Of a stretch of DNA of 25,173 nt, positions 9,393-18,203 are shown in pieces; the stretch's first letter is position 1, and each line of letters starts with the position of its first letter. The notes beneath the pieces were generated by a model. That model worked only from the letters and a program-made list of their open reading frames with translations, ran no database searches and was not told the origin of the DNA. Where the stretch lies: IMG/VR virus record IMGVR_UViG_2703718872_000032. One strand, written 5' to 3'. A program made the position numbers and the translations under genes. Origin of the DNA: a virus (Duplodnaviria; Heunggongvirae; Uroviricota; Caudoviricetes).

Positions 9393-9794
9393 GTGGCAAA
9401 AGTTTTTACACAAGAAGAGCGGGAAAAAATTAAAGGGCAGGTGGTGGAACTCGTGCGCCAGAGTGGTCGTGAGACGTTACGGCAACTGGAAGCTAAAACA
9501 GGTGCGACTAGATATCTGATGAGCGTTCTTGCCAGAGAGCTGGTAGCCAGTGGCGATGTATACAACTCCGGCTACGGGTTATTCCCGTCTGAACAGGCGC
9601 GTAAGGACTGGCAAAACGCCCGCAAAAAACTATCGAGGGCAAAGGTGAAGAAAACAGCTGTGGTTGATCCGGACCTTATCTGGTCGTTACCTGATGGAGA
9701 AATACGTCGCTACGACAGTCGCCTAAACATAATCTGTCGCGAGTGCCGGATGAGTGAAGTTATGCAGCGCATACTGGCATTTTATCAGGGATAA
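9393..9794 (+). CDS. Hypothetical protein (133 aa), GTG start
   Basis: ORF preceded by taagggggac. Basic protein with a C-terminal CxxC. No family recognised. Confidence 0.45.
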   Translation: MAKVFTQEEREKIKGQVVELVRQSGRETLRQLEAKTGATRYLMSVLARELVASGDVYNSGYGLFPSEQARKDWQNARKKLSRAKVKKTAVVDPDLIWSLPDGEIRRYDSRLNIICRECRMSEVMQRILAFYQG

Positions 9795-9887: not shown

Positions 9888-9917
9888 GGTTGTCCGCTTT
9901 GTGCCAGGAGCGGACGT
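9888..9917 (+). repeat. att-like site A: GGTTGTC + inverted repeat GTCCGC/GCGGAC + conserved 18-mer TGTGCCAGGAGCGGACGT
   Basis: 18-mer at 9900..9917 is identical to 12452..12469. Same GGTTGTC prefix as sites B and D. Confidence 0.5.
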
Positions 9918-10007
9918 TGCTAATGGCATGATGTATGAACCAATGGAGAACCGATCATCTATACACATATAGATCCCTAACGAAAATATTGTTTTCACTA
10001 GCCCTGT

Positions 10008-10044
10008 AATGGAAGCGTTAATTTTATATTCTAACGCTTCCATT
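10008..10044. repeat. Perfect 13-bp palindrome with 11-nt loop (aatggaagcgtta ... taacgcttccatt)
   Basis: Read directly. Lies 3' of the SDR gene but is not followed by a T-tract on either strand. Confidence 0.5.
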
Positions 10045-10096
10045 GAGCCTACCACTTTGGCAAAGCAATTCTTACACTTCAAAATAATGTGCTTTT

Positions 10097-10843
10097 TTAT
10101 TCAGCTAAATAACCGCCATCGATTGGATAAACGCCTCCGGTACAGAATGTAGAACTGTCTGACAGCAAGAACAATATGAAGTCTGCTATTTCCTGCATTT
10201 TTGCCATCCTTTTCATAGGGTGGCTATTTGCGAAACTACTTACAATATTTTCAGGGAACTCACTCATTCTTTGGGTTTGGACATAGCCCGGAGCGACTGC
10301 ATTGATTCGAATGCCTTGACATGCAAACTCTAGCGCTGCGGTTTGGGTTAAACCGATTATACCATGTTTAGCCACGGTGTAAGGTGCTAATCCAGGAATG
10401 CCAACCAGACCATTTACTGCAGATAAATTAACTATAGATCCACCAAACTTCATCATCTGGGGTATTTCATATTTTAGGCAGTGAAAAACGCCGCTCAATG
10501 AGGTAGCAATAACCTTATCCCAGTTTTCAACTGTCTGCTCTGTTATATTTTTACCATGTTCACCTGTTAAGCCTGCATTATTTACAGCATAATCAAGTCT
10601 GCCGAAATGTTTGATAACCTCATCTATCATTTGCCGTACTTGTTCGGGCTGTGACACATCACATCCGATCCCCATGGCTTGTTGTCCCTGTGAAGATAAT
10701 TGTTCCGCTTTTTGTTTAGCCTGTTCTGACGAGCGGGATACAATAACAACTTTTGCACCATGCTTATGTAATTGCTCTGCGACGGCCTCACCTATACCTG
10801 TAGTGCTTCCTGTTATAACGGCAATTTTATTCTGGAAATTCAT
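10097..10843 (-). CDS. Short-chain dehydrogenase/reductase (SDR) family oxidoreductase (248 aa)
   Basis: TGxxxGIG cofactor motif (ITGSTTGIGEA), NNAG, and catalytic YxxxK (YTVAKHG). ATG at 10843 preceded by AGGGGG. Confidence 0.85.
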   Translation of the reverse strand: MNFQNKIAVITGSTTGIGEAVAEQLHKHGAKVVIVSRSSEQAKQKAEQLSSQGQQAMGIGCDVSQPEQVRQMIDEVIKHFGRLDYAVNNAGLTGEHGKNITEQTVENWDKVIATSLSGVFHCLKYEIPQMMKFGGSIVNLSAVNGLVGIPGLAPYTVAKHGIIGLTQTAALEFACQGIRINAVAPGYVQTQRMSEFPENIVSSFANSHPMKRMAKMQEIADFILFLLSDSSTFCTGGVYPIDGGYLAE

Positions 10844-10914
10844 AACCACCCCCTATGAAGTAGAATTGAGTCTTTCATCTGGGATAGTATACAAACCATC
10901 TGTGACAGTTTTTG

Positions 10915-11604
10915 TCAGTACTCTTTCCCCTCGCAGATCCCTTCTTTTATTCTCCATTTTTTCAATAAAATTGTCCTGCTTTCACTATAGTTGGAGTCAA
11001 GTTGCACAATATCTTCAATTTTGTCAGTTCTAAAATGACGAAAATCATTTCTCATCTCGCACCATGCAACCAAAAGCCAGCACGATTCCATGTATACCAA
11101 TCCGATGGGCCATATGACTCGTGAAGTGTAAGAATCTTTTTTATCACAATAATTTATTTTGATTTTCTTTCTTTTTTTTATAGCATTGCGAATGTCTTCA
11201 AAAAAAATCTCATTGTTTTCTGATGGACCGATCAGATAGGATTGACTCTCAATAAGATTTTTCAATTCACTGGGAATGACGGCGTGTATTTTCGCAAGCG
11301 CATTCTTTGCGGTAATTTTGAAATTATAATCTGTATTGTGCGATACCCAATTTAACCCAAGTGTAATAGCATTAATTTCTTCATGAGAAAGATTTAAGGG
11401 GGGCAAATGAAAGTCAGATTTAACAATATAACCAATTCCAGCACCACCTTCAATGCATACTCCTTGATGCTGCAGCGTTTTTATATCTCTGTAAAGGGAG
11501 CGTACACTTATTCCCAATCTTTCTGAGAGGATGGATGCTGTGATCGGATATCTTTGTGCCCTTAATATTTGTAGTAACTCGAGAAGTCTTTCTGTTCTAG
11601 TCAT
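10915..11604 (-). CDS. HTH + WYL-domain transcriptional regulator (YafY-like), 229 aa
   Basis: N-terminal HTH (MTRTERLLELLQILRAQRYPITASILSERLGISVRSLYRDIKTL) followed by a WYL-like central region. Same strand as the SDR gene, immediately upstream of it. Confidence 0.75.
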   Translation of the reverse strand: MTRTERLLELLQILRAQRYPITASILSERLGISVRSLYRDIKTLQHQGVCIEGGAGIGYIVKSDFHLPPLNLSHEEINAITLGLNWVSHNTDYNFKITAKNALAKIHAVIPSELKNLIESQSYLIGPSENNEIFFEDIRNAIKKRKKIKINYCDKKDSYTSRVIWPIGLVYMESCWLLVAWCEMRNDFRHFRTDKIEDIVQLDSNYSESRTILLKKWRIKEGICEGKEY

Positions 11605-11822
11605 GTTGATAAATCCATTTTGAGGCGATTTCTTAAAGCATCTGTTAGATAAACATATTAGTACAAAGCAAGTGTACATGGCTAAGCTGAACTGCTACCG
11701 ATGATTAATACAGCGCTATGTTCGTAATGCGTACATAAGCGGTGATCATGAGTGTAAACATCCGCTTTTCGCTTATAAGGGACAACCATACTCAAATTTC
11801 CCACATTGCAGGAGATTTGAGT

Positions 11823-12425
11823 ATGAATACGTCACCGTGGAACAAAGACCGTATCATCGGCCAAAAAAGACCACTTCAGATATCTCATATCTGGGGGATC
11901 CGAATCCGGCTTGAACTGGAAGGTAAAACGCGCGATTTAGCTCTGTTCAATATGGCCCTGGACAGTAAGCTTCGAGGCTGTGATCTGGTCAAACTCAAAG
12001 TATCGGATGTGGCATATGGTAGTTCGGTTTCAAGCAGAGCAACGGTGTTGCAACAGAAAACCGGTAGCCCTGTGCAATTCGAGATAACCAAAGGGACAAG
12101 AGAAGCTGTTGCTGCATTGATAAAGCTTGGCAATTTGCACAGTAAAGACTTCTTGTTTCGGTCTCGGGTCGGAACTAACCAGCACATTTCAACCCGGCAA
12201 TACAACCGAATCTTTCATGGGTGGATAGAAAAACTTGGTCTCGAAGGTTCACTTTACAGCACACATTCAATGAGAAGAACAAAACCTTACCTGATCTACA
12301 AGAAAACCAAGAATCTCCGGGTGATCCAACTTCTGTTGGGTCATAAGAAACTGGAAAGCACAGTCCGTTATCTGGGCATTGAAGTCGATGATGCGTTAGA
12401 GATCTCTGAATCGATTGAAGTCTAA
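11823..12425 (+). CDS. Small tyrosine site-specific recombinase, FimB/FimE-like (catalytic domain only, 200 aa)
   Basis: ATG at 11823 preceded by AGGAGA. Alignable by eye to FimE: RDLALFNMALDSKLRGCDL vs ARDYCLILLAYRHGMRISEL; STHSMRRT vs THPHMLRH; LLLGHKKLESTVRYL vs DYLGHRNIRHTVRYT (conserved R, H-x-x-R, H, Y). Confidence 0.8.
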   Translation: MNTSPWNKDRIIGQKRPLQISHIWGIRIRLELEGKTRDLALFNMALDSKLRGCDLVKLKVSDVAYGSSVSSRATVLQQKTGSPVQFEITKGTREAVAALIKLGNLHSKDFLFRSRVGTNQHISTRQYNRIFHGWIEKLGLEGSLYSTHSMRRTKPYLIYKKTKNLRVIQLLLGHKKLESTVRYLGIEVDDALEISESIEV

Positions 12426-12469
12426 GGTTGTCAGGGCTGCAACAGCAGCCCTGTGCCAGGAGCGGACGT
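12426..12469 (+). repeat. att-like site B: GGTTGTC + perfect hairpin GGGCTGC-AACA-GCAGCCC + 18-mer TGTGCCAGGAGCGGACGT
   Basis: Starts right after the recombinase stop codon. 18-mer identical to site A; whole site is near-duplicated (degenerate) at 13971..14014. Confidence 0.55.
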
Positions 12470-12576
12470 CTAGTTCGCTGAACCACAAAAAGTCGTTTCT
12501 AGTTATATTACTGGCTCATTAGTATCTTTATGCGATAATATTTCATACAACCAAAATTATGATGAAGGGAGTTCAA

Positions 12577-13698
12577 ATGGCAATTACGGTCTATTCTCGT
12601 ACATTCAAAAAGGAATTGGACATGGTTCAATTGTTAAACCATTACTCATCAGATAACGCACTCAATTTCAGTGATTTCAAGGAATTTGTTGCCTTTGATG
12701 CAGAGTGCCCAATTTGCAATGTAAGCGGTGCGATTGTTGTTTCAGAAGGTTATTCGAAAAGAACAAATAAGATAGTCAGCCAATCTCATTTTGCGTTTAG
12801 AACAAAAGACGGAACTGATGCACACAAAGTATTTTGCGATCATTACAGTGGTGATGATAAGCAAATAGATTCATCAAGGGATGGTTTTATAAAATTCGGC
12901 ACCTCAGGTTCTGAGATTACAAGTATAATTCGCGAGCTTGTATGTAGAGGTATTGAACATGATGAGTTCAATCAGGAAGATATTCGAAACATGCGGCAAT
13001 GGTTTACAGAATTACGCCAGTCAGGCACTTTTTCTGTTAACTATAGCCCTCACATGATCAATCTAATAAGGGCCAGCATGTATTCCCGTAAGGGAGAAAG
13101 TAAATATATTGTAGATGAAGAGAGGAAAAATAAATCTTGGTTTGATATAAACGATGAAGTGTATCGTTCGTTAAGATTCAAATATCCATCATTGATGATC
13201 GACATGACTAATGAAAATAATTCTGTTTTCTATAATCTTGTGAATAGTACCACATTTACTAAACAAGCACATCGATTAGTAGCACGAGATCGAGGTTATC
13301 AGGTTTATGATAGAAGGTTGCTTAAAGAAAAATATGAAGCAACGATAAGAGTTGCACAAAAAATAACCAGGCATCACGAATTTCTTTTTAGGAAAATCAG
13401 GGGTATATCCGCTGTTAAAAAAAACAACCCCCTTTTGGCTGTATCTGCCTTGCTTCTTTTTGTCTCGGACTGGAATGAAACAACTGCAATCAACAAATTC
13501 ATCAAATTGTGTGGTGTAGGGAAATCTAAAAATAATGATGAGGGGAATGTAATTGGCTTAAATCCCTTTATTCATTACGATGTCTGGAATGTTATTCATC
13601 AACTTAAGGATTTAATGGTTACACTTCCAGACTTCTCAAATCTTGATGAAGAATTTGACAGAGAAAAATCCAGATTAATTGAACTTTACAAGCTCTAA
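12577..13698 (+). CDS. Hypothetical protein (373 aa), AT-rich cargo gene of unknown function
   Basis: Long ORF with AAGGGAG RBS 5 nt before the ATG at 12577. Visibly lower GC than the flanking phage genes. Contains CPICN and CDH motifs. No family recognised. Confidence 0.65.
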   Translation: MAITVYSRTFKKELDMVQLLNHYSSDNALNFSDFKEFVAFDAECPICNVSGAIVVSEGYSKRTNKIVSQSHFAFRTKDGTDAHKVFCDHYSGDDKQIDSSRDGFIKFGTSGSEITSIIRELVCRGIEHDEFNQEDIRNMRQWFTELRQSGTFSVNYSPHMINLIRASMYSRKGESKYIVDEERKNKSWFDINDEVYRSLRFKYPSLMIDMTNENNSVFYNLVNSTTFTKQAHRLVARDRGYQVYDRRLLKEKYEATIRVAQKITRHHEFLFRKIRGISAVKKNNPLLAVSALLLFVSDWNETTAINKFIKLCGVGKSKNNDEGNVIGLNPFIHYDVWNVIHQLKDLMVTLPDFSNLDEEFDREKSRLIELYKL

Positions 13699-13740
13699 CA
13701 TAAACTAGCAGGCTGCGTATACAGTCTGCTAATTTTCATA

Positions 13741-13970
13741 GTAAAGACTTCATGCTTCAGTCTCGAGTTGGAGCTATCCGTCACACATCACCCAGGCAAT
13801 TCAACCGAAATTTTTCATGGGGGGTAGAGAAGTTTTGTCTCGAAGATTTGCTTTACAGCATACTAATCATTGAACCTCTGTTGAACCATAAGAAACTGGC
13901 AAGCACAATCCGTTGCTTGGGCATTGAATTCGACGATGCGTCGTATAGCTCTGACTTGAACAAAACATAA
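13741..13970 (+). pseudogene. Degenerate duplicate of the recombinase 3' end (about 230 bp, with internal deletion)
   Basis: DNA from agtaaagacttc onward parallels 12141..12425. Translation FNRNFSWGVEKFCLEDLLYS...LNHKKLASTIRCLGIEFDDA parallels YNRIFHGWIEKLGLEGSLYS...LGHKKLESTVRYLGIEVDDA but lacks the catalytic H-x-x-R block. Confidence 0.65.
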
Positions 13971-14014
13971 GGTTTTTAGGGCTGCAACAGCACCTCTGTG
14001 TCATAGGCGGAAGT
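13971..14014 (+). repeat. att-like site C (degenerate copy of site B)
   Basis: ggtttttagggctgcaacagcacctctgtgtcataggcggaagt versus site B ggttgtcagggctgcaacagcagccctgtgccaggagcggacgt. Confidence 0.45.
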
Positions 14015-14311
14015 TAACAAACATTAAAATCTCTAAATCTGTAGGGATCAGACTCCTTCTATAAAAGGATACTGTTCATATCCTTAGTTGTATATAGGTG
14101 TGTTTAGAGTATTAGGATGCTAGTTTTGAAAATTAATTTTTTAAACATATTGAATTTTTTAAGAATTGGGAATAGTGTATAGCTTTGTCATGGCGGATTT
14201 TTTCTCTTCAAGTATTTATTTGAACACTACTTCTTGCACCTGCAAGGTTACAATATCGTGTAAATTTGTTCACAAAGACATAGATTATAATTTTTACTTA
14301 AAGGAAATTCA

Positions 14312-15565
14312 ATGTCAAAAAATCTCCCGGTTTTATTAAGCTCGCCATCAACAACTAATTTTCCTGCAACAGTTAATACTGAAATAGAATTCCTTTCGCA
14401 AGCTAGAAAGTTGTTAGATTCTGGCTTCCCTGATCATGCTCTTTTAGATATATGGAATGCATCCATTCATAATCTTAGGCGGCGAATTGAGGCTTATGGT
14501 TTAGACTTATTCCTTTCCGCAATAAAGGATGATAGTGGTCGTAAAAAATATGATAAAGATGGTGAAACAATAAACGAGAGATGGTCAGGTGTAGATGATT
14601 TAGTGCTAATAAGTGGAGCCACCAAATTAGGGGTTCTGCATAAGAAAGCTGGAAAATCATTAGAAATGATCAATTGGATGAGAAACCATGCCTCTCCAGC
14701 CCATGCAAGTGATAGTAAAGTAGAGTCTGAGGATGTGTTTGCTTTGGCTCTTATGCTCCAGAAGAATTTATTCGAATCTGATATGCCAGACCCTGGACAT
14801 TCGCCATCTGGATTATTTGAACCCATAAAAAAATCTGAACTATCAATTGAGAGCATAGACTTACTTAAAGATCAAATAAGAGCATTTAAGCAAGCTGATA
14901 TAAGAATAACATTTGGATTTTTATTGGATTTAATAACTAAGGGGGAAAATCCTGCTTATGTTAATGCTAGCAAGTTGTTTGAACAAGCATGGGAAAGATC
15001 TAATGATGACCTTAAAAAAACAGCGGGGGAAAGATATCACTCATTTATGCTGGAGCCCGAATCGGATACAAGTGAGGATAAAGGAGCAAAAATAAGAATT
15101 TTAGAGACTTTAGTAAAAGTTAATGGTGTGAAATTTATACCTGATGCTGCTAGGGCAAGTTTATACAGACATGCGGTTAAACAGCTAGCTAAAGCTAAGG
15201 ATACATCTTACGGCTGGAATGATGAAGAAAGAGCAGCCAAGGCACTTATACAATTTGGACCTCATGTTCCATCTATTGCTTTTGAAGATGTATATCAAGA
15301 AATACTTACTGTTTGGGTGGGGAATTACTGGGGAAGATCTGATGCACATTTAGTACTTCAACCATTTTTAGATGTGTTAAATAGTAATCAATTGATGGCT
15401 CTCTCACGGTTGTTCGTGGAGAATGAAAGAGCAAATTCAGAACTGGTGTCATCAAGGCCCAAAAGAAGAGCAATAGAATTACTTGAGATAATAAAAAATA
15501 ATCTAACAATTCAAGCAAGCATTGATGAAATTGATAGGATTATTTCTGAAATTGATAAAATGTAA
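14312..15565 (+). CDS. Hypothetical protein (417 aa), AT-rich cargo gene of unknown function
   Basis: Long ORF with AAGGAAA RBS and an AT-rich upstream promoter region. Intrinsic terminator directly downstream. No family recognised. Confidence 0.7.
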   Translation: MSKNLPVLLSSPSTTNFPATVNTEIEFLSQARKLLDSGFPDHALLDIWNASIHNLRRRIEAYGLDLFLSAIKDDSGRKKYDKDGETINERWSGVDDLVLISGATKLGVLHKKAGKSLEMINWMRNHASPAHASDSKVESEDVFALALMLQKNLFESDMPDPGHSPSGLFEPIKKSELSIESIDLLKDQIRAFKQADIRITFGFLLDLITKGENPAYVNASKLFEQAWERSNDDLKKTAGERYHSFMLEPESDTSEDKGAKIRILETLVKVNGVKFIPDAARASLYRHAVKQLAKAKDTSYGWNDEERAAKALIQFGPHVPSIAFEDVYQEILTVWVGNYWGRSDAHLVLQPFLDVLNSNQLMALSRLFVENERANSELVSSRPKRRAIELLEIIKNNLTIQASIDEIDRIISEIDKM

Positions 15566-15577
15566 TTTATTTGCAAT

Positions 15578-15610
15578 TAAGCCATGCTTTTTAGGTGGCT
15601 TATTTTTTTT
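15578..15610 (+). terminator. Rho-independent terminator after the 417-aa gene
   Basis: Stem taagcca/tggctta with 11-nt loop, followed by an 8-T run. Confidence 0.6.
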
Positions 15611-15682
15611 GAATCTACTACTTATATTGATATTAGCAATGTAATTGCTAAAGTATTCCTAGCCCACTATTCATCTAAATAT

Positions 15683-15741
15683 GGTTGTCGAAAGGCCCGC
15701 TTCTCGCTCAAAGCGGACTAGAAGGTTAGCTTGTGTCGGAC
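15683..15741 (+). repeat. Possible degenerate att-like site(s) D
   Basis: ggttgtc + inverted repeat ccgctt/aagcgg + agcggac (15683..15718), then aaggtt...tgtgtcggac (15722..15741). These resemble the outer motifs of sites A and B but without the intact 18-mer. Confidence 0.25.
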
Positions 15742-16183
15742 TTTGCGTATTAAATGACTAGTGGTTGAGCCCCATTTCCACAGAAAAAATCAGAGAAACT
15801 ATACCCAATAGTTGTATTGAATCACTGACGAGACAGCCTCATATTCATCAGGACTGGTGTACGTCCAATACAGGAGGTTGTGGTGCTGGTTCTCAAATGT
15901 GCGCTGGCTATTACGGCTGTAATGGCGATTTATTGTCTTGCTATTGTTCTTATGGATCGCCTTTCTGACTGATTTCACATTGGCGAGGTAACGGTAGTTA
16001 AGTAGAATGGCTGCGGGTGCTTGAGGCTATCTGCCTCGGGCATGAACACCAACGGCAGATAGAGAAAAGCCCCAGTTAACATTACGCGTCCTGCAAGACG
16101 CTTAACATTAATCTGAGGCCAATTTCATGCTAGACATATGTAGGTTAGCCTCTTACGTGCCGAAAGGCAAGGAGAAGCAGGCT

Positions 16184-16339
16184 ATGAAGCAGCAAAAGGC
16201 GATGTTAATCGCCCTGATCGTCATCTGTTTAACCGTCATAGTGACGGCACTGGTAACGAGGAAAGACCTCTGCGAGGTACGAATCCGAACCGGCCAGACG
16301 GAGGTCGCTGTCTTCACAGCTTACGAACCTGAGGAGTAA
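16184..16339 (+). CDS. hokD: Hok/Gef-family type I toxin (51 aa)
   Basis: MKQQKAMLIALIVICLTVIVTALVTRKDLCEVRIRTGQTEVAVFTAYEPEE matches HokD (RelF) as I recall it. An in-frame upstream ATG at 16127 gives the 70-aa track ORF. Confidence 0.8.
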   Translation: MKQQKAMLIALIVICLTVIVTALVTRKDLCEVRIRTGQTEVAVFTAYEPEE

Positions 16340-16409
16340 GAGACCCGGCGAGGGAGAAATCCCTCGCCACCTCTGATGTGGCAGGCATCCTCAACGCACC
16401 CGCACTTAA

Positions 16410-16436
16410 CCCGCTTCGGCGGGTTTTTGTTTTTAT
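16410..16436 (+). terminator. Rho-independent terminator downstream of hok
   Basis: cccgc-ttcg-gcggg hairpin followed by tttttgtttttatttt. Confidence 0.65.
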
Positions 16437-17153: not shown

Positions 17154-18203
17154 GTGCGGGTATTACTTAGACCTGTTCTGGTGCCTGAGCTTGGGCTGGT
17201 GGTCCTTAAGCCGGGCCGTGAATCCATACAGATATTTCATAATCCTCGAGTGCTGGTGGAACCGGAACCAAAAAGCATGCGTAATCTGCCATCCGGAGTC
17301 GTTCCTGCCGTTCGCCAGCCGCTGGCGGAAGACAAAACATTGCTGCCGTTTTTTAGTAACGAACGGGTGATTCGTGCTGCTGGCGGTGTTGGCGCATTGT
17401 CTGACTGGCTATTACGTCATGTTACATCCTGCCAGTGGCCTAATGGCGATTACCATCACTCTGAAACAGTCATTCACCGTTATGGTACCGGCGCAATGGT
17501 GTTGTGTTGGCACTGCGACAACCAACTGCGTGACCAGACATCGGAATCACTGGAGCTGCTTGCTCAACAAAATCTGACAGCATGGGTGATTGACGTCATC
17601 CGTCACGCAATAAGCGGTACGCAGGAGCGGGAATTATCTTTGGCTGAATTATCCTGGTGGGCGGTCTGCAATCAGGTGGTGGATGCACTACCTGAGGCTG
17701 TATCGCGTCGTTCGCTGGGATTACCAGCGGAAAAAATCTGCTCGGTGTACCGCGAAAGCGACATCGTACCGGGAGAGCAGACCGCCACCAGCATATTGAA
17801 ACAACGCACAAAAAATCTTGCACCGTTGCCTTACGCCCACCAGCAACAAAAAACACCACAGGAAAAGACGGTGGTAAGCATCACCGTTGATCCAGAGTCT
17901 CCGGAATCTTTCATGAAGCTGCCTAAACGTCGCCGCTGGGTTAAGGAGAAATACACACGTTGGGTTAAGACACAGCCGTGTGCTTGCTGCGGTATGCCAG
18001 CCGACGATCCGCATCATCTGATTGGTCACGGGCAGGGCGGAATGGGAACAAAAGCACATGATCTCTTTGTGTTGCCTTTGTGCAGAAAGCATCACAACGA
18101 GCTGCATACGGATACAGTGGCATTTGAAGAGAAGTATGGCTCCCAACTGGAGCTGATATTTCGTTTTATCGATCGCGCGCTGGCAATTGGCGTACTGGCG
18201 TAA
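17154..18203 (+). CDS. ydfU: YdfU-family protein (DUF968-like, 349 aa), C-terminal Cys/His cluster
   Basis: GTG start at 17154 preceded by GGAGGT. C-terminus CACCGMPADDPHHLIGHG...CRKHHNELH. Length and position match ydfU upstream of Q. Confidence 0.75.
   Translation: MRVLLRPVLVPELGLVVLKPGRESIQIFHNPRVLVEPEPKSMRNLPSGVVPAVRQPLAEDKTLLPFFSNERVIRAAGGVGALSDWLLRHVTSCQWPNGDYHHSETVIHRYGTGAMVLCWHCDNQLRDQTSESLELLAQQNLTAWVIDVIRHAISGTQERELSLAELSWWAVCNQVVDALPEAVSRRSLGLPAEKICSVYRESDIVPGEQTATSILKQRTKNLAPLPYAHQQQKTPQEKTVVSITVDPESPESFMKLPKRRRWVKEKYTRWVKTQPCACCGMPADDPHHLIGHGQGGMGTKAHDLFVLPLCRKHHNELHTDTVAFEEKYGSQLELIFRFIDRALAIGVLA

Follow-up and report, generated by a model that had tools for sequence, protein, structure and literature searches.

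By what means defense genes pass from one hotspot to another, among phages, satellites, and islands that are unrelated, is a long-standing question. Two recent hotspot studies make no mention of sites or of a recombinase like those described here, and either discuss homologous recombination or leave the mechanism open; one recent study reported exchanges between elements lacking the sequence identity that homologous recombination requires. For the fun(Z) cassette of phage P2, exchange was put down to site-specific recombination by Nilsson et al. in 2004 (Mol Biol Evol 21:1), as summarized in PMC8987985. Here we compare such systems with a cassette array in a Qin-like lambdoid prophage of Escherichia coli (IMG/VR record IMGVR_UViG_2703718872_000032, 25,173 nucleotides, hereafter the window, meaning the whole stretch analyzed). 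With a probability of about 0.7, we read this array as nested co-integrates that arose when a tyrosine recombinase consisting of the catalytic domain only acted on sites of two heterospecific kinds, in a natural counterpart of recombinase-mediated cassette exchange (RMCE). A prediction made earlier from the sequence alone had proposed an integron-like array with a FimB/FimE-like recombinase; what stood of it was a horizontally acquired, site-delimited cassette array beside an intact small recombinase gene, while the number of sites, their orientations, and the families assigned had to be revised.

Several described systems share parts of this arrangement. Engineered RMCE (loxP/lox2272, FRT/F3) uses sites with the same arms and incompatible spacers, such that like recombines only with like. 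The window has cargo between same-arm sites whose spacers differ at two symmetric positions, which likewise would give exchange rather than inversion or loss; RMCE, however, is a laboratory design, whereas the arrangement in the window appears natural, and its incompatibility is one that we infer from fixed spacer differences. Integrons resemble the window as arrays of mostly single-gene, promoter-poor cassettes with a tyrosine recombinase and probable anti-phage cargo, but the window is without the IntI signature, the fixed attI and Pc platform, and the folded attC, and has instead a mobile recombinase, two site classes, and crossovers at both cassette ends. FimB/FimE invertases share the build of about 200 amino acids (aa), consisting of the catalytic domain only, and the short inverted sites, yet the evidence from the window points to exchange between replicons and not to a local inversion switch. 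The pdif sites of Acinetobacter plasmids have an 11-6-11 structure with the asymmetry in their arms. As in pdif modules, discrete cargo in the window lies between short, inversely oriented, alternating tyrosine recombinase sites and is shuffled between replicons; in contrast to pdif, the arms are symmetric, the asymmetry resides in two spacer classes, and a dedicated 200-aa recombinase travels as a module. According to the accounts in PMC6449649 and PMC13141974, pdif sites are of the Xer type, with XerC/XerD acting on them, and have been reported from Acinetobacter only.

Five core sites in two spacer classes and two orientations were identified within the window (Table 1), by reading of the sequence and by an arm-spacer-arm scan with a template of 8-bp arm, 8-bp spacer, and 8-bp arm (GTCCGCTy-N8-rAGCGGAC). 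The arms are inverted (ac-GTCCGCTy and rAGCGGAC-gt) around the spacer. Class T1, with spacer TGTGCCAG (general form nGTGCCAr), comprises sites A, B, and the decayed C; class T2, with spacer CTCGCTCA (TGAGCGAr on the opposite strand), comprises site D and is also the class of site E. The reverse complement of the T1 spacer, CTGGCACA, is close to CTCGCTCA and differs from it at two symmetric positions, 3 and 6 of the spacer. With arrowheads for orientation, the array reads A> [SDR, WYL] <E [recombinase] B> [373 aa + truncated second recombinase] C> [417 aa] <D, where SDR is a short-chain dehydrogenase/reductase and WYL a regulator. The original prediction had drawn four direct repeats and overlooked site E upstream of the recombinase gene. 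Its 18-mer, TGTGCCAGGAGCGGACGT, is indeed exact at 9900-9917 and 12452-12469, with a chance expectation for the pair of about 0.01 that was upheld (two copies in 0 of 100 shuffles), and the GGTTGTC motif is present at 9888, 12426, and 15683. A degenerate copy of the 18-mer does lie at 13997, matching merely 13 of 18 bases and missed when up to 3 mismatches were allowed; there is none near 15712 or 15732, the actual site there being D, of the second class and in the opposite orientation. An internal GC hairpin, claimed for all sites, was found in B and C, while that of A and D is merely the two inverted arms of the core. Site B does begin at the recombinase stop, directly after the TAA at 12423-12425. 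Sites A and B share the 18-mer because both consist of the consensus T1 spacer and outer arm, not because one is a copy of the other.

The two classes hold well beyond the window. A total of 62 core sites were counted in 1.3 Mb of related loci, compared with 3 in shuffled sequence. Among 65 classifiable sites from 21 enterobacterial loci, 30 were T1, 34 were T2, and 1 was a T1/T2 hybrid, and 64 of the 65 were T1 or T2 in a single fixed orientation relative to the recombinase gene. Spacer position 3 separated the classes completely (T in 30/30 T1, A in 34/34 T2), and position 6 nearly so (C in 29/30 T1, G in 33/34 T2). Because class orientation is fixed, every cargo is bounded on the left by T1 and on the right by T2 in inverted orientation, and every connector runs from T2 to T1. 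These connectors are phage backbone, a conserved 18-bp linker, or a 700-bp recombinase module. In three of the loci (L001, L002, and L003) and in enterobacterial loci of other genera, cassettes are parted either by the recombinase module or by a unit of about 66 bp consisting of T2, the 18-bp linker cttcagctcagtgatatc, and T1, with the cores 42 bp apart from start to start. The linker was observed in junctions lacking the recombinase at unrelated loci (L001 4033-4050, L003 10739-10756, L009, L010, L011, and L013). A 96-bp junction query (the 66-bp unit with 15 bp of each flank) had at least a partial match in about 1,490 of 5,426 complete E. coli genomes, many of the matches spanning one core only. 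The hybrid spacer, CTCGCACA (L090 6952-6975, strain SF-468), has the T2 character at position 3 and that of T1 at position 6; a rare recombination of T1 with T2 may have left it behind.

The same sites flank a cassette that is already known. In phage P2 (AF063097; L093), the lysogenic-conversion gene fun(Z) occupies the slot between G and FI and is flanked by a T1 at 15335-15358 (GTCCACTC-TGTGCCAA-AAGCGGAC) and a T2 at 17432-17455 (TTCCGCTT-CTCGCTCA-AAGGAAAC). Sites A, B, and D of the window have the arms and spacers of this fun(Z) type and flank its cargo in the same manner. The sites are literally identical, and one cargo block of the window occupies the P2-type slot in another strain (below); the window differs in that its platform is a lambdoid, Qin-like replication-region hotspot, with a recombinase module and nested relics. 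Since the sites tie the window to the fun(Z) exchange described in 2004, its kind is not wholly new, and the earlier claim of a novel cassette-capture system has to be narrowed accordingly. No description of the recombinase module, of both site classes, or of the site sequences was found in the full-text literature, which is weak evidence in that only open-access text was covered. Not found in earlier accounts were the recombinase module, the division of the sites into two heterospecific classes, a lambdoid hotspot in the role of platform, and the sharing of cassettes among lambdoid, P2-like, and integrative and conjugative element (ICE)-like backgrounds.

Site-specific cassette exchange should place the same cargo, with site-precise borders, on unrelated platforms, and at the level of sequence we regard this as the decisive test. 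Cargoes 2 and 3 form a single mobile unit that extends from the first base of the site B spacer to the end of the site D core and contains the 373-aa gene, a recombinase relic, site C, and the 417-aa gene. This block is found at 99.7 to 99.8% identity in at least 10 other E. coli genomes, for two of which the context was inspected. In strain ES5 (L091), it is flanked by the genes for tail-fiber assembly and tail sheath in a P2-like prophage (the G/FI slot), and in strain M3 (L089), within an ICE-like tRNA-Ser island with trbJ/trbL and an integrase. At both, the left junction consists of a platform-specific arm, TGTGCCAG, and GAGCGGACgtctagttcgc, and the right junction of gaaagGCCCGCTT, CTCGCTCA, and a platform-specific arm; the right half of site B accordingly accompanies the block in other genomes. 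A second cassette, X1 of L001, was found in three contexts with the same kind of borders, one of them directly adjoining a recombinase module. Cargo 1 was not found in another context among the 5,426 genomes. Identical cassettes placed with site precision in unrelated phages and islands suggest that probable anti-phage genes travel among mobile elements by a route that is little known. Five nucleotides (nt) to the left of the cargo-side arm of site D, the GGTTGTC at 15683-15689 moves with the block, being present in L089 and L091 too, and may be either a coincidence or what is left of the 3' end of a recombinase module (TCTAA..GGTTGTC).

The hotspot itself, between a DUF977 gene and hokD, was compared across E. 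coli genomes, thousands of which hold both flanks with other content between them. More than 20 different cargoes were recognized in the slot, including RelA/SpoT, DUF4209, ABC-three-component (ABC-3C), Sll1717 ATPase, and QueH with a methyltransferase, and further KwaB-like, AbiH, AIPR, NACHT, SMEK, and FRG proteins; the DUF977 gene was kept beside every variant compared. On the left side, seven variants share an invariant backbone up to and including GGTTGTCCGCTT-TGTGCCA, after which homology breaks, to be followed by variable right arms that keep the motif (GGAGCGGACGT, AGAGCGGACTT, GAAGCGGACGT, ACAGCGGACGT, and others) and then by unrelated DNA. The right junction shows a variable xTCCGCTxx arm followed by a constant CGCTCA-AAGCGGACTAGAAGG, and in five variants the left arm of site D varied while CGCTCAAAGCGGACTAGAAGG was constant. 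In over a dozen independent comparisons, homology always broke within the spacers. A motif kept on the variable side, together with homology that ends in the 8-bp spacer, is a classic footprint of site-specific recombination. With gene content varying widely among homologous loci and rearranged junctions present in population data, neither of the corresponding outcomes that the original prediction had named as refuting it was observed.

Each site of the window can be divided along these lines. The left arm and spacer of site A are phage backbone and its right arm belongs to cargo 1, which also contributes the left arm of site E; the right arm of E (followed by ACAACCA) forms the left boundary of the recombinase module. 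The left part of site B is the right end of that module and its right arm belongs to the cargo 2/3 block. At site D, the left arm is cargo, while the spacer from position 2 onward and the right arm (followed by TAGAAGG) are phage backbone. The spacer of site E, TTCGCTTA at 11768-11775, carries a C-to-T change where all other recombinase modules examined read CGCTCA; this change may hinder E x D resolution and may have frozen the structure. In the Qin prophage of K-12 MG1655 (L094, 1645981-1646995), flxA lies between a T1 (L094 5982-6005) and a T2 (L094 6973-6996). Flanked in this way, flxA is one of these cassettes. The T1 core falls inside the annotated ydfV open reading frame (ORF), and ydfV may be a spurious ORF over a recombination site.

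The 200-aa ORF beside these sites is a tyrosine recombinase, as predicted, scoring 65.3 bits against PF00589 (gathering cut-off, 27.1). Putative catalytic residues are all present in the translation: R51 (LRGCDL), K79, H148-x-x-R151 (THSMRR), H173 (LLGH), and Y183. Box II was aligned with XerD HVLRH...LLGH...Y through marginal XerD matches in a PDB sequence search, and box I and K79 were assigned by eye. On translation and alignment, the tetrad and with it the enzyme look catalytically intact. Its assignment to FimB/FimE did not hold: the NCBIfam models PRK09871 and PRK09870 gave 24.4 and 16.7 bits, where the cut-offs are 222 and 221, and what is common to them is the catalytic-domain-only build of about 200 aa. 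The best NCBIfam match was the archaeal XerA model (53.9 bits; cut-off, 220). Xer membership was rejected as well (XerC, 47.5 bits against 335; XerD, 29 against 330), the cores being 8-8-8 with GTCCGCT arms. Integron-integrase models gave no NCBIfam match at E <= 0.01, and the protein is without an N-terminal domain. Homologs number more than 8,000. Identity to the window recombinase is 78 to 97% across Enterobacterales, Idiomarina, and Pseudoalteromonas, 64 to 67% in some Alteromonadales, and 59 to 65% in Pseudomonas, Xanthomonadales, and Burkholderiales.

Rather than being part of cassette 1, as first drawn, the recombinase gene forms a separate module with sharp borders within sites E and B, leaving the SDR and WYL genes as the only content of cassette 1. 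The module (700 bp from the E spacer to the end of B) was found elsewhere at about 93% identity with unrelated DNA on both sides: in the same hotspot with other cargo (L001), in an island near ypjA (L002), and in an island near dynamin/patatin genes (L003). In an alignment of four modules, homology begins at CGCTCATAAGGGAC; module homology begins with CGCTCATAAGGGACAACC and ends directly after GCGGACGT. BLAST matches to the module span 11768-11770 to 12466-12469 in 773 E. coli genomes, and 872 of the 5,426 carry it. Matching plasmid records numbered 781, of which 565 were from Klebsiella; coverage reached at least 80% in 99 of the 781, and the remainder mostly appear to be fragments. No complete module was found in 50,697 phage records. 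Because the module ends are half-sites with borders in the spacers, the module was itself inserted by the reaction that swaps cargo.

Two RNA hairpins accompany the gene (Table 1). The first, in the 5' untranslated region (5'UTR), would pair the Shine-Dalgarno sequence and AUG of the recombinase gene. Hairpins of differing sequence that sequester the Shine-Dalgarno sequence, and usually bury the AUG too, were predicted in 26 of 34 family members, including distant clades. This arrangement resembles the fold-back inhibition of IS10 transposase, which shields that transposase from read-through transcripts. The second, AGGGCTGC-AACA-GCAGCCCT, lies directly 3' of the stop codon at the inner-arm position of site B; its structure is kept across clades while its sequence differs, and it could serve to stabilize the 3' end of the mRNA or belong to the site itself. 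Across clades, this hairpin is followed by a spacer-like element and an AAGCGG-type arm, and an arm-spacer-arm precedes the 5'UTR hairpin upstream of the gene, an end architecture common to family members from Enterobacterales to Pseudomonas. In the Pseudomonas/Stutzerimonas clade, and in this clade only, the module ends are clear terminal repeats (16-nt inverted repeats with 0 to 2 mismatches). In an agn43-linked island of strain STEC17-190, cassette X1 and a gene for a restriction endonuclease adjoin a recombinase copy with an internal stop (L095 5240-5842), so decayed modules persist in arrays.

A mechanism that would account for these observations is as follows. The 200-aa recombinase would bind the arms and exchange strands only between sites with like spacers since, the arms being symmetric, spacer identity and orientation decide which sites pair. 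T1 x T1 or T2 x T2 recombination between direct repeats would release a circle of one cargo and one connector, carrying one T1 and one T2, that could enter any other like site of either class by a single crossover. Entry through one class and exit through the other would swap cargo between platforms, and the T1/T2 differences at spacer positions 3 and 6 would block inversion of the cargo. The window recombinase is the candidate enzyme, by reason of its association with the sites and because the ends of its module are half-sites. The window would then represent two unresolved integrations at the backbone T1. The older would have placed a 373-aa cassette with a second recombinase ahead of the 417-aa cargo, later losing its left site and the 5' part of that recombinase, with site C decaying; in the newer, SDR-WYL with the intact recombinase would have entered at the backbone T1.

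Such a co-integrate model predicts recombinase relics beside cargo, and relics exist in the window, in strain SF-468, and in a Yersinia phage. In the window, 13719-14014 is a decayed duplicate of the recombinase 3' end and site (12120-12469; 74 to 77% identity). Strain SF-468 (L090) has the 373-aa gene and the relic, there annotated as an N-terminally truncated recombinase, followed by a better-preserved site C and then by other cargo (DUF4365); homology to the window breaks at the site C spacer. The different cargo after site C in this strain indicates that C formerly served as an active T1. The Yersinia phage is vB_YpM_22 (L098 2990-3080), which is viable and P2-like. Behind the cargo of its Z/fun slot come site E, the 5'UTR of the recombinase gene, and the first seven codons, and then a deletion that reaches the FI upstream region. 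This stub is what remains of a recombinase module after its deletion.

Several observations weigh against this reading. The module was found in only 872 of the 5,426 E. coli genomes, T1/T2-flanked cassettes being far commoner and occurring in genomes and phages without it (P2; K-12 flxA). Since most cassettes are in module-less genomes, either action in trans must be assumed or another enzyme could act. The pre-integration state (A-cargo 2/3-D in the lambdoid slot) was not found among the 5,426 genomes, nor was an excised circle or empty site observed in the sequences compared. The hybrid spacer of SF-468 means that the spacer barrier is not absolute, and the inner arms of the module match the consensus poorly, a hairpin replacing the inner arm of B. 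The variant spacer of site E in the window is a further point of this kind. In GC-rich loci, an arm-only scan was near background (90 sites against about 63 in shuffles), and with the enterobacterial arm consensus, sites could not be defined beyond the Enterobacterales, Pseudomonas, and Xanthomonadales clades, several betaproteobacterial loci included.

The prevalence of cassettes without the module is also a point for an alternative in which the module is only a selfish element that targets preexisting palindromic sites (compare the IS1202 family at pdif), while homologous recombination or some other enzyme, of host or phage, moves the cassettes. Its translation-blocking 5' hairpin, a trait typical of selfish elements, would fit as well. 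We consider this alternative unlikely. The module ends are half a T2 and half a T1 with borders in the spacers, no other recombinase was consistently nearby, and to our knowledge the cores do not resemble the E. coli dif site; homologous recombination cannot account for cargo that is identical in backbones of lambdoid, P2-like, and ICE type, which have no flanking homology in common.

An integron attC is built of two simple sites. The T2-linker-T1 junction recurs between cassettes as two simple sites 42 bp apart, and T1 would pair with an inverted T2 with two mismatches at spacer positions 3 and 6; in a literally integron-like system, this unit of about 66 bp would be a folded single-stranded attC captured at one crossover point. 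Against such a reading, which we hold to be quite improbable, crossovers occur at sites of both classes, on many platforms kilobases separate T1 from T2 with no junction unit, and in single-stranded folding each core formed its own small hairpin and no long T2:T1 stem. A 200-aa protein that matched no integron-integrase model argues in the same direction. The integron-like label of the original prediction fails on these grounds, there being no IntI match and no attI/attC organization, a recombinase that is mobile, and two inversely oriented site classes with crossovers at both. Still less probable is a phase-variation switch of the FimB/FimE type that flips cargo to alter expression. It would explain why inversely oriented sites flank each cargo, and the recombinase has the size of FimB/FimE and weakly matches DNA-invertase models; those scores are, however, about one-tenth of the cut-offs, the two sites around a cargo are never alike at spacer positions 3 and 6 such that inversion would yield hybrids (seen in 1 of 65), and the same cargo on unrelated replicons is beyond what inversion can do. 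That the repeats are chance matches or regulatory palindromes (terminators, operators) is hardly credible: although the arms form small hairpins, the 18-mer pair has an expectation of 0.01, 62 sites were found against 3 in shuffled sequence, no core site was called a terminator or had a T-tract 3' of it, and breakpoints lay within the spacers in over a dozen independent comparisons.

Returning to exchange by the small recombinase between two heterospecific sites, a broader and tentative proposal is that the module and its two sites form a self-contained cassette-exchange system across Gamma- and Betaproteobacteria, possibly an unnamed engine that moves anti-phage and accessory genes between hotspots of lambdoid and P2-like phages, ICEs, plasmids, and chromosomal islands. 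If true, it would constitute a second cassette economy alongside integrons. The locus offers a testable answer to how defense genes hop, with a defined 24-bp site, two classes, and a small candidate enzyme. Pairs of T1 and T2 could serve as an annotation key for cargo, K-12 flxA and P2 fun(Z) both being flanked by them, and the 373-aa and 417-aa proteins would be flagged as candidate defense genes. A 200-aa recombinase with naturally heterospecific sites could also be developed for cassette exchange in genome engineering.

Table 1. Features of the cassette array and its borders in the window
Feature	Position	Strand	Evidence
Left platform gene, DUF977 (ydaW-like), left border of hotspot	9393..9794	+	PF06163, E = 6e-27
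Site A, T1 core GTCCGCTT-TGTGCCAG-GAGCGGAC	9892..9915	+	18-mer search, template scan
Cargo 1 gene 1, SDR-family oxidoreductase, 248 aa	10097..10843	-	PF13561, E = 4e-70; SDR in RefSeq
Cargo 1 gene 2, HTH-WYL transcriptional regulator, 229 aa	10915..11604	-	WYL, E = 1.5e-16; HTH_11, E = 1.3e-13; PADLOC WYL, E = 2.6e-61
Site E, T2 core ATCCGCTT-TTCGCTTA-TAAGGGAC	11760..11783	+	Repeat comparison, template scan
Predicted 5'UTR hairpin pairing Shine-Dalgarno and AUG of recombinase, 15-bp stem	11787..11825	+	RNAfold, -19.9 kcal/mol, z = -6.3
Tyrosine recombinase, 200 aa, catalytic domain only	11823..12425	+	PF00589, E = 7.4e-18, residues 35-184
GC hairpin directly 3' of recombinase stop, at inner-arm position of site B	12433..12452	+	-12.6 kcal/mol, z = -3.1
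Site B, T1 core AGCAGCCC-TGTGCCAG-GAGCGGAC	12444..12467	+	18-mer search, module alignment, template scan
Fused cargo 2+3 block, one mobile unit	12452..15719	+	Borders in T1 and T2 spacers
Cargo 2, 373-aa protein of unknown function	12577..13698	+	phrog_12525 (unknown function), E = 2e-147
Second recombinase gene, relic of 3' part (pseudogene)	13719..13970	+	74-77% identical to recombinase 3' end
Site C, decayed T1 core AGCACCTC-TGTGTCAT-AGGCGGAA, degraded hairpin just before	13989..14012	+	Sequence reading, module alignment
Cargo 3, 417-aa protein of unknown function	14312..15565	+	phrog_27609 (unknown function), E = 7e-186
Site D, T2 core GCCCGCTT-CTCGCTCA-AAGCGGAC	15695..15718	+	Hotspot variants, template scan
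Right platform, sok RNA and hokD toxin locus, right border of hotspot	16015..16339	+	Rfam sok, 112.7 bits; HOK_GEF, E = 3e-23

The prophage is inserted beside rspB in Shiga-toxigenic-type E. coli, and the window is 100% identical to strains 2018-166, 2012EL-2448, and STEC2018-553. Its gene order is int, xis, exo, dicB, dicA/dicC, ydaT, a replication gene, and DUF977 to the left of the array, and sok/hokD, rem, ydfU, the Q antiterminator, and lysis genes after it. An Rfam scan of the window returned sok and a weak isrK-like match only, both outside the array; the latter (16348-16429, 25.7 bits, under the gathering score) lies 3' of sok/hokD. Scans of the 373-aa and 417-aa cargo proteins against Pfam, NCBIfam, and PADLOC gave no match. 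The 417-aa protein has 435 homologs of nearly constant length across phyla (57 to 94% identity among the best 120 of the 435), ranging over Providencia, Vibrio, Burkholderia, Cyanobium, and Lentisphaerota. No domain is annotated in any of them, and such a pattern is typical of mobile single-gene systems.

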